Positions 25,222 to 30,308 of a stretch of 64,000 bases of DNA are shown here, piece after piece (the first letter of the stretch is position 1; every line of letters begins with the position of its first letter). The stretch comes from Escherichia coli. GTDB taxonomy: Bacteria > Pseudomonadota > Gammaproteobacteria > Enterobacterales > Enterobacteriaceae. The notes below the pieces were generated by a model, which was given only the letters and a program-made list of their open reading frames with translations, was not told the origin of the DNA and did no database searches. The position numbers and the translations under genes were made by a program. The stretch lies in assembly GCF_016026235.1 (NCBI RefSeq), contig NZ_CP065613.1. The stretch is one strand, 5' to 3'.

Positions 25222-25875
25222 CTTAAGAAGTCCGTCGGTCAGGGGGAGCATGAACTCTCCATCCTCACCGGAGTTGAGCTGGTTGTCAAACGTGGCGAGA
25301 CCATCGCACTGGTGGGCGAGTCGGGATCGGGTAAGTCAACCTTGCTGGCGATCCTCGCCGGGCTGGATGACGGCAGCAGTGGCGAAGTGAGTCTGGTGGG
25401 ACAACCGCTACATAATATGGACGAAGAAGCGCGGGCAAAGTTGCGCGCGAAGCACGTAGGCTTTGTTTTTCAGTCATTTATGTTAATTCCTACCCTTAAC
25501 GCGCTGGAAAACGTCGAGCTTCCGGCGCTGCTGCGCGGTGAGAGTAGCGCGGAAAGTCGTAACGGAGCGAAAGCGTTGCTCGAACAGTTAGGTCTGGGTA
25601 AACGTCTGGATCATCTTCCGGCACAGCTTTCCGGCGGTGAACAGCAACGAGTGGCGCTGGCACGAGCCTTTAACGGTCGACCTGATGTGCTGTTTGCCGA
25701 CGAACCCACCGGCAACCTTGACCGCCATACCGGCGATAAAATTGCCGACCTGCTGTTTTCCCTCAACCGTGAGCATGGCACCACGTTGATTATGGTGACC
25801 CACGACCTGCAACTGGCGGCACGCTGCGACCGCTGCTTACGGCTGGTGAACGGGCAGTTGCAGGAGGAAGCATGA
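25189..25875 (+). CDS. ybbA: ABC transporter ATP-binding protein (LolD-like)
   Basis: 228-aa ORF with Walker A GESGSGKST and LSGGEQQR signature. Confidence 0.85.
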   Translation: MPAENIVEVHHLKKSVGQGEHELSILTGVELVVKRGETIALVGESGSGKSTLLAILAGLDDGSSGEVSLVGQPLHNMDEEARAKLRAKHVGFVFQSFMLIPTLNALENVELPALLRGESSAESRNGAKALLEQLGLGKRLDHLPAQLSGGEQQRVALARAFNGRPDVLFADEPTGNLDRHTGDKIADLLFSLNREHGTTLIMVTHDLQLAARCDRCLRLVNGQLQEEA

Positions 25876-28286
25876 TTGCACGTTGGTTCTGGCGCGAATG
25901 GCGTTCGCCGTCGCTATTAATTGTCTGGCTGGCGCTAAGCCTGGCGGTGGCCTGCGTGCTGGCGCTGGGCAATATCAGCGATCGCATGGAGAAGGGCTTA
26001 AGCCAGCAAAGCCGTGAGTTTATGGCGGGCGATCGGGCGCTGCGCAGTTCGCGCGAAGTGCCGCAAGCGTGGCTGGAGGAAGCGCAAAAGCGCGGCCTGA
26101 AAGTCGGCAAGCAGCTGACTTTCGCCACCATGACATTTGCAGGCGACACACCGCAGCTGGCGAACGTTAAAGCGGTGGATGATATCTACCCGATGTATGG
26201 CGATCTGCAAACCAATCCCCCTGGCCTGAAACCGCAGGCGGGCAGCGTATTGCTGGCCCCACGCCTGATGGCACTGCTTAACCTGAAAACGGGCGACACC
26301 ATTGACGTGGGCGATGCCACCTTGCGGATTGCCGGAGAAGTGATTCAGGAACCGGATTCCGGTTTTAACCCCTTCCAGATGGCTCCGCGTCTGATGATGA
26401 ATCTGGCGGATGTCGATAAAACCGGAGCCGTGCAGCCGGGGAGTCGGGTCACCTGGCGCTATAAATTCGGCGGCAGCGAGAACCAGCTCGACAGCTATGA
26501 GAAATGGTTGTTACCTCAGCTTAAACCCGAACAACGCTGGTACGGTCTGGAACAGGACGAAGGCGCGCTGGGGCGATCGATGGAACGCTCGCAACAGTTC
26601 CTGCTGCTTTCGGCGCTTCTGACCTTGCTGCTGGCAGTGGCAGCGGTGGCGGTAGCGATGAATCATTACTGTCGCAGTCGCTACGATCTGGTGGCGATCC
26701 TCAAAACACTGGGGGCAGGGCGAGCGCAACTGCGTAAGCTAATCGTCGGTCAGTGGTTGATGGTGCTGACGCTTTCAGCCGTTACCGGTGGGGCGATAGG
26801 CCTGTTGTTCGAAAACGTGTTGATGGTGCTGCTCAAGCCCGTTCTGCCTGCTGCACTACCGCCAGCCAGCCTCTGGCCGTGGCTGTGGGCGCTTGGCACC
26901 ATGACGGTCATCTCGCTGCTGGTGGGGCTACGACCATACCGCTTGTTGCTGGCAACGCAGCCTTTACGCGTATTACGTAATGATGTGGTAGCGAACGTCT
27001 GGCCGCTGAAGTTTTATCTGCCGATTGTCAGTGTGGTGGTTGTGCTGCTGCTCGCCGGATTAATGGGTGGCAGCATGCTGCTTTGGGCGGTGCTGGCGGG
27101 CGCGGTAGTACTGGCTTTGCTGTGCGGTGTGCTGGGCTGGATGCAGCTGAATGTACTTCGCCGCATGACGCTGAAATCGCTACCTCTGCGCCTGGCGGTT
27201 AGCCGCCTGTTACGTCAGCCGTGGTCAACGTTAAGCCAGCTTTCGGCATTTTCGCTCTCCTTTATGCTGCTGGCGCTGTTGCTGGTATTGCGTGGCGATC
27301 TGCTCGACCGCTGGCAGCAGCAGCTACCGCCAGAAAGCCCGAACTACTTTTTAATTAACATCGCCACAGAACAGGTAGCACCGCTAAAAGCGTTCCTCGC
27401 GGAACATCATATAGTCCCGGAATCGTTTTATCCGGTGGTGCGGGCGAGACTGACGGCGATTAACGGCAAGCCGACAGAAGGCAATGAAGATGAGGCGCTC
27501 AATCGCGAACTCAATCTTACCTGGCAAAATACGCGGCCCGATCATAATCCGATTGTCGCCGGTAACTGGCCGCCAAAAGCCGATGAAGTATCGATGGAAG
27601 AGGGGCTGGCGAAACGCTTAAACGTTGCCCTCGGTGATACCGTGACTTTTATGGGCGATACCCAGGAGTTCCGCGCTAAAGTGACCAGCCTGCGCAAAGT
27701 GGACTGGGAAAGTCTGCGGCCTAATTTCTATTTTATTTTCCCTGAAGGGGCATTAGACGGGCAACCGCAGAGCTGGCTTACCAGTTTCCGCTGGGAGAAT
27801 GGCAACGGCATGTTGACGCAACTCAACCGCCAGTTCCCGACCATTAGCCTGTTAGACATTGGCGCGATTTTAAAACAGGTCGGCCAGGTGCTGGAGCAGG
27901 TAAGTCGGGCGCTGGAGGTGATGGTGGTGCTGGTCACCGCCTGCGGTATGTTGCTGTTGCTGGCACAGGTGCAGGTGGGAATGCGTCAGCGTCATCAGGA
28001 GCTGGTGGTGTGGCGCACACTCGGTGCGGGGAAAAAACTGCTGCGTACCACGTTGTGGTGTGAGTTCGCCATGCTTGGGTTTGTTTCTGGCCTGGTGGCC
28101 GCAATTGGTGCGGAAACGGCACTGGCAGTGTTGCAGGCGAAAGTGTTTGATTTTCCGTGGGAGCCAGACTGGCGATTGTGGATTGTTCTGCCGTGCAGCG
28201 GTGCGCTGCTGCTGTCGCTTTTCGGCGGCTGGCTGGGCGCGAGACTGGTTAAGGGTAAGGCGCTGTTCAGGCAGTTTGCGGGGTGA
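25872..28286 (+). CDS. ybbP: FtsX-like ABC transporter permease
   Basis: 804-aa polytopic ORF overlapping the ybbA stop by 4 bp. Confidence 0.85.
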   Translation: MIARWFWREWRSPSLLIVWLALSLAVACVLALGNISDRMEKGLSQQSREFMAGDRALRSSREVPQAWLEEAQKRGLKVGKQLTFATMTFAGDTPQLANVKAVDDIYPMYGDLQTNPPGLKPQAGSVLLAPRLMALLNLKTGDTIDVGDATLRIAGEVIQEPDSGFNPFQMAPRLMMNLADVDKTGAVQPGSRVTWRYKFGGSENQLDSYEKWLLPQLKPEQRWYGLEQDEGALGRSMERSQQFLLLSALLTLLLAVAAVAVAMNHYCRSRYDLVAILKTLGAGRAQLRKLIVGQWLMVLTLSAVTGGAIGLLFENVLMVLLKPVLPAALPPASLWPWLWALGTMTVISLLVGLRPYRLLLATQPLRVLRNDVVANVWPLKFYLPIVSVVVVLLLAGLMGGSMLLWAVLAGAVVLALLCGVLGWMQLNVLRRMTLKSLPLRLAVSRLLRQPWSTLSQLSAFSLSFMLLALLLVLRGDLLDRWQQQLPPESPNYFLINIATEQVAPLKAFLAEHHIVPESFYPVVRARLTAINGKPTEGNEDEALNRELNLTWQNTRPDHNPIVAGNWPPKADEVSMEEGLAKRLNVALGDTVTFMGDTQEFRAKVTSLRKVDWESLRPNFYFIFPEGALDGQPQSWLTSFRWENGNGMLTQLNRQFPTISLLDIGAILKQVGQVLEQVSRALEVMVVLVTACGMLLLLAQVQVGMRQRHQELVVWRTLGAGKKLLRTTLWCEFAMLGFVSGLVAAIGAETALAVLQAKVFDFPWEPDWRLWIVLPCSGALLLSLFGGWLGARLVKGKALFRQFAG

Positions 28287-28300
28287 TGACTGGTGTTAGA

Positions 28301-28603
<303 letters not shown>

Positions 28604-28632
28604 GAACAGTGTGCATTTTGGCAATAAATCTG

Positions 28633-28657
28633 AAACCAACTGTCATGTCGGTTTTTT
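28633..28657. repeat. 25-bp direct-repeat copy A (aaaccaactgtcatgtcggtttttt), 24/25 identical to copy B at 29109-29135
   Basis: Read directly from the sequence; the two copies bracket the small-ORF module. Confidence 0.7.
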
Positions 28658-28658
28658 A

Positions 28659-28687
28659 AAGGCCGAAGGTGGTAAACCTTCGGCCTT
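28659..28687 (-). terminator. Strong hairpin (11-bp stem aaggccgaagg / ccttcggcctt) 17 nt downstream of the small-ORF stop
   Basis: Perfect stem with a 7-nt loop; on the minus strand it is followed by a second weaker hairpin with a U-rich tail (copy A). Confidence 0.5.
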
Positions 28688-28703
28688 AGCTACGTTTCCT
28701 CAG

Positions 28704-28787
28704 TTATTCAATAAACTGACGGATCAGTTCCAGCAGCGCGATTAGCGCCTTAAGCACGATGAGAACTTTATCGAGAAAAGTTTTCAT
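28704..28787 (-). CDS. Candidate 27-aa type I toxin-like peptide (DinQ/TisB-like), MKTFLDKVLIVLKALIALLELIRQFIE
   Basis: ATG with a GGGAG RBS 8 nt upstream; amphipathic single-helix peptide; the LIALLELIR stretch matches my memory of E. coli DinQ; structured 3' end; candidate antisense RNA nearby. Confidence 0.45.
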   Translation of the reverse strand: MKTFLDKVLIVLKALIALLELIRQFIE

Positions 28788-29012
28788 CCGTTGCTCCCTT
28801 AAGGGAGAAAGACAATCACAGCTTACCCTTACGTTGCCTGTAACTATGATTTTCTTCATGTGCTAGATGAGGACTGCCTCTCTCCAAATTAGAGCACCAG
28901 AATCAGCACCACCTGTATCCTGACCAGGACTTAAAAGTACTTTTCCGCACTGCGGTAATCCCTTGAGGCAGTATCACTACTAGCGTCGGGATTGTATCGC
29001 CAACATAGCTGT

Positions 29013-29135
29013 TTGAATATGTAGGCATCCTGACTTATAATTCACTTGCTAGATGAGGACTGTTTCATTTCTGCCCGGAACCACCAAGTCTTGGGCGGAA
29101 AAAATAAAAAAACCGACTGTCATGTCGGTTTTTTT
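29013..29135 (+). ncRNA. Candidate small RNA: TTGAAT-17bp-TATAAT promoter (29013-29041), predicted start near 29048, terminator hairpin plus T7 at 29111-29135
   Basis: Near-consensus sigma-70 promoter and intrinsic terminator bracket about 88 nt with no ORF; the 5' end carries a 16-nt core (tgctagatgaggactg, 29047-29062) identical to 28861-28876 in the presumed leader of the toxin-like ORF. Confidence 0.35.
29109..29135. terminator. Bidirectional A-tract/hairpin/T-tract terminator (also terminates selU); direct-repeat copy B
   Basis: aaaaaaaccgac-tgtcat-gtcggttttttt; 63 nt downstream of the selU stop on the minus strand. Confidence 0.65.
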
Positions 29136-29198
29136 ATATCTGTATTCTGGTGCAACCATTCTGTTCTCACGACAATCGCCGTTTCAGAATACCGCCCA

Positions 29199-30308
<1,110 letters not shown>

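Follow-up and report, generated by a model that had tools for sequence, protein, structure and literature searches.

The locus described here lies within a 64,000-nucleotide stretch of Escherichia coli DNA (contig NZ_CP065613.1; hereafter, the window), between ybbP on the left (25872-28286, plus strand) and mnmH/selU on the right (29199-30293, minus strand). In K-12, the ybbP-mnmH interval spans ~7.3 kb and holds rhsD-ybbC-ylbH-ybbD-ylbI-ylbG; positions 28290 to 29196 of the window have nothing in common with K-12, which matches only ybbP and selU themselves. The original prediction had placed a short toxin-like ORF in the slot that carries rhsD in K-12, and it was right about the slot, as the gene sits between ybbP and mnmH. 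The 27-codon minus-strand ORF and its GGGAG Shine-Dalgarno (SD) sequence are likewise real at the level of sequence and translation: positions 28704 to 28787 read ATG...TAA (27 codons plus TAA) and encode MKTFLDKVLIVLKALIALLELIRQFIE, and GGGAG occupies 28798-28794. The spacer between GGGAG and the ATG is 6 nt long (CAACGG), not 8 nt as first given. An open frame of 51 codons (28704-28859, minus strand) takes in the ORF as its 3′ part. The surroundings had been described as an otherwise noncoding 0.9-kb region, which needs amending, for the same interval also holds an AgrB-like RNA gene (29049-29137, plus strand) and a REP array (about 28324-28630). Two copies of a 25-nt direct repeat on the plus strand, D3, flank the toxin and RNA genes and mark the edges of a cassette (left copy, 28633-28657; right copy, 29110-29134). 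The copies are 96% identical and 477 bp apart, and the left one is a degenerate copy of the terminator arm shared by the AgrB-like gene and mnmH.

We compared the peptide with curated family models and the module with characterized loci. The NCBIfam DinQ model NF041472 scores the peptide at 40.9 bits (cutoff, 30; E = 1.8e-10), and the DqlB model NF041473 scores it at 24.5 bits, below its cutoff of 35. For calibration, genuine DinQ gives 54.0 bits with the DinQ model and 14.9 bits with the DqlB model, and plasmid DqlB gives 20 to 23 and 67 to 72 bits, respectively. The peptide is hydrophobic (GRAVY = 1.23) and contains the LELIR core; the match of LIALLELIR to DinQ in the original prediction is correct, the K-12 DinQ sequence being VIDKAIIVLGALIALLELIRFLLQLLN. 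Considered along its length, MKTFLDKVLIVLKALIALLELIRQFIE is a mosaic, with a DinQ-like center (DKVLIVLKALIALLELIR versus DKAIIVLGALIALLELIR in DinQ) and a DqlB-like C terminus (LELIRQFIE versus LELIRQFID), and by sequence it is intermediate between DinQ and DqlB. The surrounding DNA is homologous too: over ~480 to 500 bp, the module and the K-12 dinQ-agrA/B locus share ~70% DNA identity, and plasmid dqlB loci also align, with conserved blocks across the 5′ untranslated region (UTR) and compensatory changes in the terminator stems. [quoted passage not shown] PADLOC also gave no match. Judged by its peptide HMM score, 5′ UTR architecture, and AgrB-type partner, the gene is a member of the DinQ/Dql family in the broad sense, and the ORF at 28704-28787 very likely encodes the toxin of a type I toxin-antitoxin cassette of the DinQ/AgrB type, with toxicity and expression attributed to it by homology.

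In more than 1,100 complete E. coli genomes, RefSeq already annotates this ORF (WP_349808740.1, "dinQ"), with the product name "damage-inducible type I toxin DinQ." The name, along with a score above the cutoff of NF041472, an "equivalog" model, would fit the SOS gene dinQ itself, repressed by LexA and induced by DNA damage. We regard that identity as decidedly improbable, because the canonical dinQ is a separate gene that occupies the gor-arsR interval in 5,422 of 5,426 complete E. coli genomes, whereas the copy described here is at ybbP-mnmH; given the near universality of the canonical gene, carriers of the ybbP-mnmH module have both copies. The peptide departs from the canonical ...LELIRFLLQLLN by ending in RQFIE rather than RFLLQLLN, and its 40.9 bits fall well short of the full-strength score of genuine DinQ. 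A scan of the locus for LexA operators found no CTGTN8ACAG site at ≤1 mismatch, a filter lenient enough to retain the K-12 box. Upstream of the toxin, the 20-mer closest to a LexA site matches at 11 of 20 positions and reads CTAC where the CTGT half-site would be; the dinQ LexA box of E. coli K-12 and E. albertii (TACTGTATGATTATCCAGTT) matches at 15 of 20. Since the locus has no LexA box, "damage-inducible" is probably a mislabel that RefSeq and its annotation pipeline PGAP took over from the model.

Judging from alignments with the dinQ transcript of K-12 and with dqlB loci, the toxin mRNA would be ~330 nt long (28656-28984, minus strand). The sequence G(T/C)T(A/G)G sits at the same 5′-end position in all 16 family loci compared, and in all 16 a −10 element lies 6 to 7 nt upstream of this conserved end (exactly 6 nt in 13). 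Here, the −10 element is TACAAT (28991-28996, minus strand), accompanied by a weak −35 element, TATTCA (29019-29014, minus strand). The promoter as a whole is an 8/12 match that a consensus scan did not pick up, and its −10 element (5/6) equals that of K-12 dinQ in quality. At the 3′ end, the hairpin first noticed at 28659-28687 (minus strand) is present in sequence and folds as GGCCGAAGGU-UUACC-ACCUUCGGCC followed by UUUAA, with a 10-bp GC-rich core (GGCCGAAGGT/ACCTTCGGCC) or 12 bp counting two flanking A-U pairs. The second hairpin proposed alongside it also exists, at 28654-28633, and is weaker. The dinQ and dqlB loci have a hairpin in the same position as the terminator, with compensatory changes in the stem.

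The 5′ UTR contains counterparts of all four elements of the dinQ regulatory switch. The leader (28965-28984, minus strand) begins at a predicted +1 G28984 and comprises the segment a, GCUAG (28984-28980), and element 1, ACUGCCUC (28972-28965). Element 2 together with the AgrB-like target occupies 28862-28885 (minus strand), a position corresponding to G88-A119 in K-12. Its sequence GGAGAGAGGCAGUCCUCAUCUAG (28885-28863) includes the 14-nt perfect seed CAGUCCUCAUCUAG (28876-28863), and the segment a′, CUAGC (28866-28862), pairs with a in the leader. Element 3, GAUUGUCUUUCUCC (28803-28817, minus strand), can take either the SD sequence (closed state) or element 2 (open state) as its partner. In the closed state, elements 3 and 4 form an SD-sequestering hairpin, CUCCC-UUAA-GGGAG (28794-28807, minus strand), seen both in the sequence and in the folds; the K-12 counterpart is CUCCAU...AUGGAG (PMC5066626). 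The +1 G that we chose for K-12 dinQ reproduces the numbering in that paper (G5, U16-C28, G94-G106, U167-U178, and A182-G187). The equivalent of the K-12 +44 processing site, at which the transcript would be activated, falls near 28937 (minus strand).

The energies of the alternative duplexes (1:2, −30.1; 2:3, −23.6; 3:4, −14.3 kcal/mol) are comparable to those of K-12 dinQ (−34.4, −20.3, and −12.2 kcal/mol, respectively). In the minimum free energy (MFE) fold of the full-length RNA, GCUAG (nucleotides 1 to 5) and ACUGCCUC (13 to 20) pair with GAGGCAGU...CUAGC, forming a long-range "lock" as in K-12. The end of the lock is GCUAG:CUAGC here and GUUAG:CUAAC in K-12, a compensatory difference. 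The SD sequence is paired in folds of the full-length RNA (probability of being unpaired, ≤0.05). RNAalifold analysis of 12 family members recovered SL2, SL4, and the 2:3 helix, with double compensatory changes in 15 of 30 pairs, and at alignment columns 118:193 the ybbP-mnmH locus supplies its own A:U pair in the 2:3 helix. Alignment across the family is poor over the first ~45 nt of the leader, a point also made by Kristiansen et al. (PMC5066626). When MFE and partition folds of full-length and 5′-processed RNAs were compared, the SD sequence did not open for the ybbP-mnmH locus or for K-12 dinQ alike, and for the processed K-12 dinQ mRNA opening is experimentally demonstrated; our reading of the switch accordingly uses the energies of the element pairs and the covariation among family members, not MFE folds.

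The same features bear on which start codon is used. An exact-sequence look-up found 27-aa and 51-aa forms both public under the DinQ name, each on 1,000 or more contigs, and the reading frame is open to the ATG at 28859, so that the real product could in principle be the 51-aa protein that many database entries carry. This is hardly credible in view of the 5′ UTR: no SD sequence precedes 28859, which itself lies within the antisense target, and the N-terminal extension is unconserved, the upstream frames varying in length and sequence across the family. At the 27-aa start, in contrast, the arrangement GGAG(N5-7)RTG, and with it the SD spacing, is kept in 14 of 14 family members compared. The analogous 49-aa frame of K-12 dinQ is unused, the 27-aa form being the product (PMC3567139).

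The AgrB-like RNA (29049-29137, plus strand; ~89 nt) is the putative antitoxin. Its gene lies 260 nt upstream of the toxin ORF on the opposite strand and matches the Rfam AgrB family RF02891 at 53.6 bits (gathering score, 40; E = 1.2e-7), a score near the low end of the family. It has the only sigma-70-like promoter returned by the regional scan (TTGAAT-17 nt-TATAAT; 29013-29041, plus strand; 10/12 match) and a terminator hairpin with a perfect 14-bp stem (29104-29137) that is bidirectional and common to mnmH. The toxin and AgrB-like −35 regions overlap on opposite strands (29013-29019), which suggests that the two promoters may compete. A 22-nt direct repeat, D4 (28855-28876 and 29041-29062), gives the 5′ end of the RNA, CUAGAUGAGGACUGUUUCAUUUC, its complementarity to the toxin 5′ UTR. 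The duplex contains 14 perfect base pairs, and 22 of the first 23 nt of the RNA are paired when 5 G-U pairs are counted. The first 45 nt of the RNA pair with the mRNA at −54.7 kcal/mol, compared with −28.7 ± 3.2 kcal/mol for 300 shuffled sequences (minimum, −41.6).

AgrB-type RNAs adjoin most family members in other genera, and we computed a matrix that pairs 14 such RNAs with 10 toxin leaders. Every leader paired most strongly with its cognate RNA, noncognate duplexes being 6 to 23 kcal/mol weaker, as expected if RNA and mRNA coevolve. At −50.8 kcal/mol, the ybbP-mnmH pair is the weakest cognate duplex in the matrix (others, −51 to −69 kcal/mol), and from these sequence comparisons partial decay of the regulatory pair is conceivable.

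We surveyed 5,426 complete E. coli genomes and found the module at ≥95% identity in 1,326 (~24%). All matches at this level are chromosomal, counting three megabase-sized records mislabeled as plasmids. A DNA search of plasmid records returned 1,659 matches, of which the true plasmids reach at most 71% identity; a tblastn search of plasmids with the 27-mer found none, probably because so short and low-complexity a query performs poorly, and a phage collection contained no match to the module. The SD sequence and start region are intact in 1,135 genomes, including ATCC 8739 and O145:H28 strains, and across these the SD, start codon, and ORF are nearly invariant. A second allele, found in 189 genomes, has a 108-bp deletion between GTCCTCATC and GTTCTCATC that takes out the antisense target seed, the SD sequence, and codons 1 to 7 but leaves the AgrB-like gene in place. 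Strain GF43 is the one genome without the 3′ end of the ORF and the terminator, and in one rhs-bearing strain, BS-01, part of the AgrB-like gene survives next to mnmH. At least two genomes, both from baboon isolates, have a precise empty site with a single copy of the repeat, matching a synthetic junction over 123 of 123 positions in one piece. Toxin-deleted, 3′-truncated, and empty alleles together indicate that the module is dispensable and under loss in some lineages. PGAP still calls a 5′-truncated remnant "dinQ" in some genomes.

Beyond E. coli, the ybbP-mnmH slot of Escherichia sp. E1V33 encodes an identical peptide between flanks that are 3 to 4% diverged. The Serratia oryzae homolog is VKTLIDKVLIVLKALVALLELIRQFID and has a strong AgrB partner; between it and the ORF in the window, the codon changes comprise 6 synonymous and 4 conservative nonsynonymous ones, a pattern typical of conserved coding sequence.

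These data allow us to weigh whether the locus is a decaying relic, in which the toxin is neither expressed nor toxic and at most the AgrB-like RNA is active. Such a relic would account for the weakness of the cognate duplex, the low Rfam score, the weak toxin promoter, and the repeated loss seen as the 108-bp deletion (189 genomes), GF43, the empty sites, and the rhs replacement. We nevertheless consider it unlikely: the SD sequence, start codon, and ORF have stayed intact and nearly invariant in 1,135 genomes, the peptide is unchanged in E1V33 despite its diverged flanks, every switch element is intact, as are the two promoters and the two terminators, and the −10 element is no worse than that of K-12 dinQ. 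With good confidence, we interpret the cassette as a complete accessory module of the DinQ/AgrB type, a paralog of dinQ-agrAB that was inserted between ybbP and mnmH.

If this putative toxin-antitoxin cassette operates as its relatives do, a weak sigma-70 promoter (−10 TACAAT, with no LexA box) would produce an mRNA of ~330 nt starting at G28984. In the primary transcript, the leader (GCUAG...ACUGCCUC) would pair with element 2 and a′ (GAGGCAGU...CUAGC), and element 3, thus left free, would hide the GGGAG SD sequence in a hairpin, making the mRNA stable and untranslatable. Removal of ~47 nt from the 5′ end would then let element 2 pair with element 3 and open the SD sequence. Translation would yield a 27-aa hydrophobic helix that would enter the inner membrane and be toxic on accumulation. 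The strongly promoted ~89-nt AgrB-like RNA would pair through its 5′ end with element 2, re-closing the SD hairpin, and the RNA-mRNA duplex would probably be a substrate of RNase III. By analogy with dinQ (PMC3567139, PMC5066626) and dqlB (PMC12365149), the transcript would probably start, end, and be processed and translated in this way, with a toxic product and with the RNA as its repressor.

The AgrB-like RNA might also act beyond its own toxin. Its 5′ end is similar to that of AgrA, an RNA of the canonical locus that is presumed to have no function, and this likeness, along with retention of the AgrB-like gene in the 189 toxin-deleted genomes, makes it conceivable that the RNAs cross-regulate both chromosomal toxins or an incoming plasmid dqlB (anti-addiction). 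Pairing energies speak against strong cross talk: AgrA pairs with the ybbP-mnmH toxin mRNA at −41.4 kcal/mol (cognate, −50.8), and the AgrB-like RNA pairs with plasmid dqlB mRNAs at −37 to −44 kcal/mol (their cognates, −51 to −59). We judge such a role unlikely. A fuller version, an SOS-independent DinQ paralog whose output is set not by LexA but by competition between the divergent promoters sharing a −35 region and whose AgrB-like RNA has a role of its own, strikes us as similarly doubtful.

The original prediction had implied that a toxin at this locus would be new. The RefSeq annotation and the dql family defined in 2016 (PMC5066626) both predate it, and given these, what we present is a correct identification rather than a discovery. 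In the searchable literature, we found no paper on the ybbP-mnmH copy specifically. Its status as a second copy, the missing LexA box, the intermediacy between DinQ and DqlB, the cassette structure, and the loss alleles are absent from the papers searched and are of modest interest. Roughly one in five E. coli strains, among them the laboratory strain ATCC 8739 and O145:H28 outbreak strains, have two chromosomal DinQ-type toxins, and studies of "dinQ" in non-K-12 strains should allow for the second copy. The ybbP-mnmH slot also offers a natural series for the gain and loss of a chromosomal type I module, with intact, orphan antitoxin, empty, and rhs-replaced states.

Among known systems, zorO-orzO and tisB-istR-1 are trans-encoded type I modules whose long 5′ UTRs require processing. 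They resemble the predicted module in that the primary transcript is inert, processing produces the active form, and a divergently encoded small RNA pairs in the 5′ UTR, but they have no detectable peptide or RNA homology to it. The likeness to K-12 dinQ-agrAB is far more specific: both loci have a 27-aa peptide sharing DK.(I/L)IVL.ALIALLELIR, an mRNA of ~330 nt with the ORF near its 3′ end, a 5′ UTR switch of four elements with the SD hairpin, SL2/SL4, and terminator, and a divergently transcribed AgrB-type RNA that pairs through its 5′ end with the element 2 region. For DinQ itself, toxicity, inner-membrane location, the +44 active form, and the action of AgrB and RNase III have been demonstrated (Weel-Sneve 2013; Kristiansen 2016; PMC3567139 and PMC5066626). 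The differences are nonetheless clear. K-12 dinQ is a core gene (99.9%) at gor-arsR, whereas the ybbP-mnmH copy is accessory (~24%) and has no LexA operator; K-12 has agrA and agrB in tandem, compared with one agr gene here; and, unlike in K-12, the divergent promoters overlap at −35. Relative to K-12 DinQ, the peptide in the window is 3 residues longer at its N terminus, lacks FLL, ends in RQFIE instead of RFLLQLLN, and has a lysine in mid-helix where DinQ has glycine. The antisense duplex is also shorter and weaker, with 22 of the first 23 nt paired (14 perfect bp) compared with 30 of 31 nt in K-12.

The dqlB-agrB modules of pOXA-48 (IncL) and pOXA-484 (IncX3) share with the ybbP-mnmH locus their mRNA architecture, the C-terminal LELIRQFI(D/E), an AgrB-type antitoxin that pairs with the 5′ UTR, and no established LexA control. 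Arabinose-induced toxicity of DqlB, rescue by agrB, and compensatory mutations were reported in 2025 (Nat Commun; PMC12365149, PMC12317039), and within the family DinQ and DqlB are the two peptides for which toxicity and inner-membrane localization have been shown. DqlB is longer than the 27-aa peptide described here (31 aa), has a different N-terminal half (MINLLIIVLRAVAALANA..., starting MINLLIIVLRAV...), and belongs to a plasmid-borne addiction module, whereas the ybbP-mnmH locus is chromosomal. In 2016, Kristiansen et al. defined chromosomal as well as plasmid dql genes, coresident with dinQ in some strains (PMC5066626), and the ybbP-mnmH gene may be among their 14 examples or belong to their "dqlA" group. 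Their description of the chromosomal genes, with sigma-70 promoters, terminators, and 5′ UTR elements, fits the ybbP-mnmH locus.

The cassette formed by the DinQ-type toxin ORF (28704-28787, minus strand) and the AgrB-like RNA gene (29049-29137, plus strand) is flanked by a 25-nt direct repeat, whose copies at 28633-28657 and 29110-29134 are 96% identical and lie 477 bp apart. An exact "empty site" with one repeat copy occurs in two baboon E. coli genomes, PapM-32-1 and PapRG-04-4. The right copy falls within the bidirectional terminator shared by mnmH and the AgrB-like gene. By analogy with the K-12 agrA/agrB tandem, the cassette may once have had a second agr gene, of which the left copy would be the remaining terminator. 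Between ybbP and the left copy, 3′ of ybbP, lies a REP/BIME array (28324-28630) made up of roughly three units of ∼100 bp each, with Rfam matches to naRNA4 (CssrE; two above the gathering score) and to ES036. Its unit number varies among strains: Escherichia sp. E1V33 has fewer units than the window, and PapM-32-1 retains a single REP element, with the two internal ∼100-bp units missing.

In the rhs-bearing E. coli strain BS-01, part of the AgrB-like gene can still be recognized adjoining mnmH, together with the shared promoter region (L035 2300-2640). The rhs island of the BS-01 lineage therefore overwrote a cassette that was already in place; no AgrB-like remnant of this kind is found beside mnmH in K-12. 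Three PLSDB "plasmids" that carry the window locus (CP061270.1, NZ_CP141089.1, and NZ_CP134663.1) are 1.2 to 4.9 Mb in size and are evidently chromosomes or chromosome fragments under a wrong plasmid label.

A 108-bp deletion (window 28766-28873; loci L032 and L033) between the microhomologies GTCCTCATC and GTTCTCATC is common to 189 genomes. Missing from these alleles are the seed of the antisense target, the Shine-Dalgarno sequence, and codons 1 to 7 of the toxin; the AgrB-like gene remains and in these genomes is an orphan (predicted) antitoxin. The truncated ORF is named "dinQ" by PGAP in some of them and is unannotated in others.

The inferred start sites of the toxin and AgrB-like genes are 65 bp apart, and at 29013-29019 the −35 element of the strong AgrB-like promoter (TTGAAT, plus strand) overlaps the weak −35 element of the toxin promoter (TATTCA, minus strand), making competition between the two promoters possible. 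In K-12 dinQ-agr, the corresponding elements do not overlap.

At some loci of the plasmid DinQ-like toxin gene dqlB, AgrB-type genes stand in tandem, two or three to a locus (Citrobacter amalonaticus, L030 7078-7836; L005 1462-1795), just one of which per locus is predicted to pair strongly with the local toxin leader, paralleling K-12 agrA/agrB. On pEC6563-NDM5, dqlB-agrB has as its direct neighbor an antitoxin RNA of the sok type (L005 1827-1984; 113 bits in Rfam), so two type I systems are adjacent there. K-12 AgrA (L002 1564-1645) is held to be non-functional towards dinQ. Compared with window 29049-29090, its 5′ end (UUAGAUGAUGG) is nearer than that of K-12 AgrB to the AgrB-like RNA (CUAGAUGAGGA), and its predicted pairing with the window toxin leader (−41.4 kcal/mol) is better than that of K-12 AgrB (−35.9 kcal/mol) and weaker than that of the cognate AgrB-like RNA (−50.8 kcal/mol).
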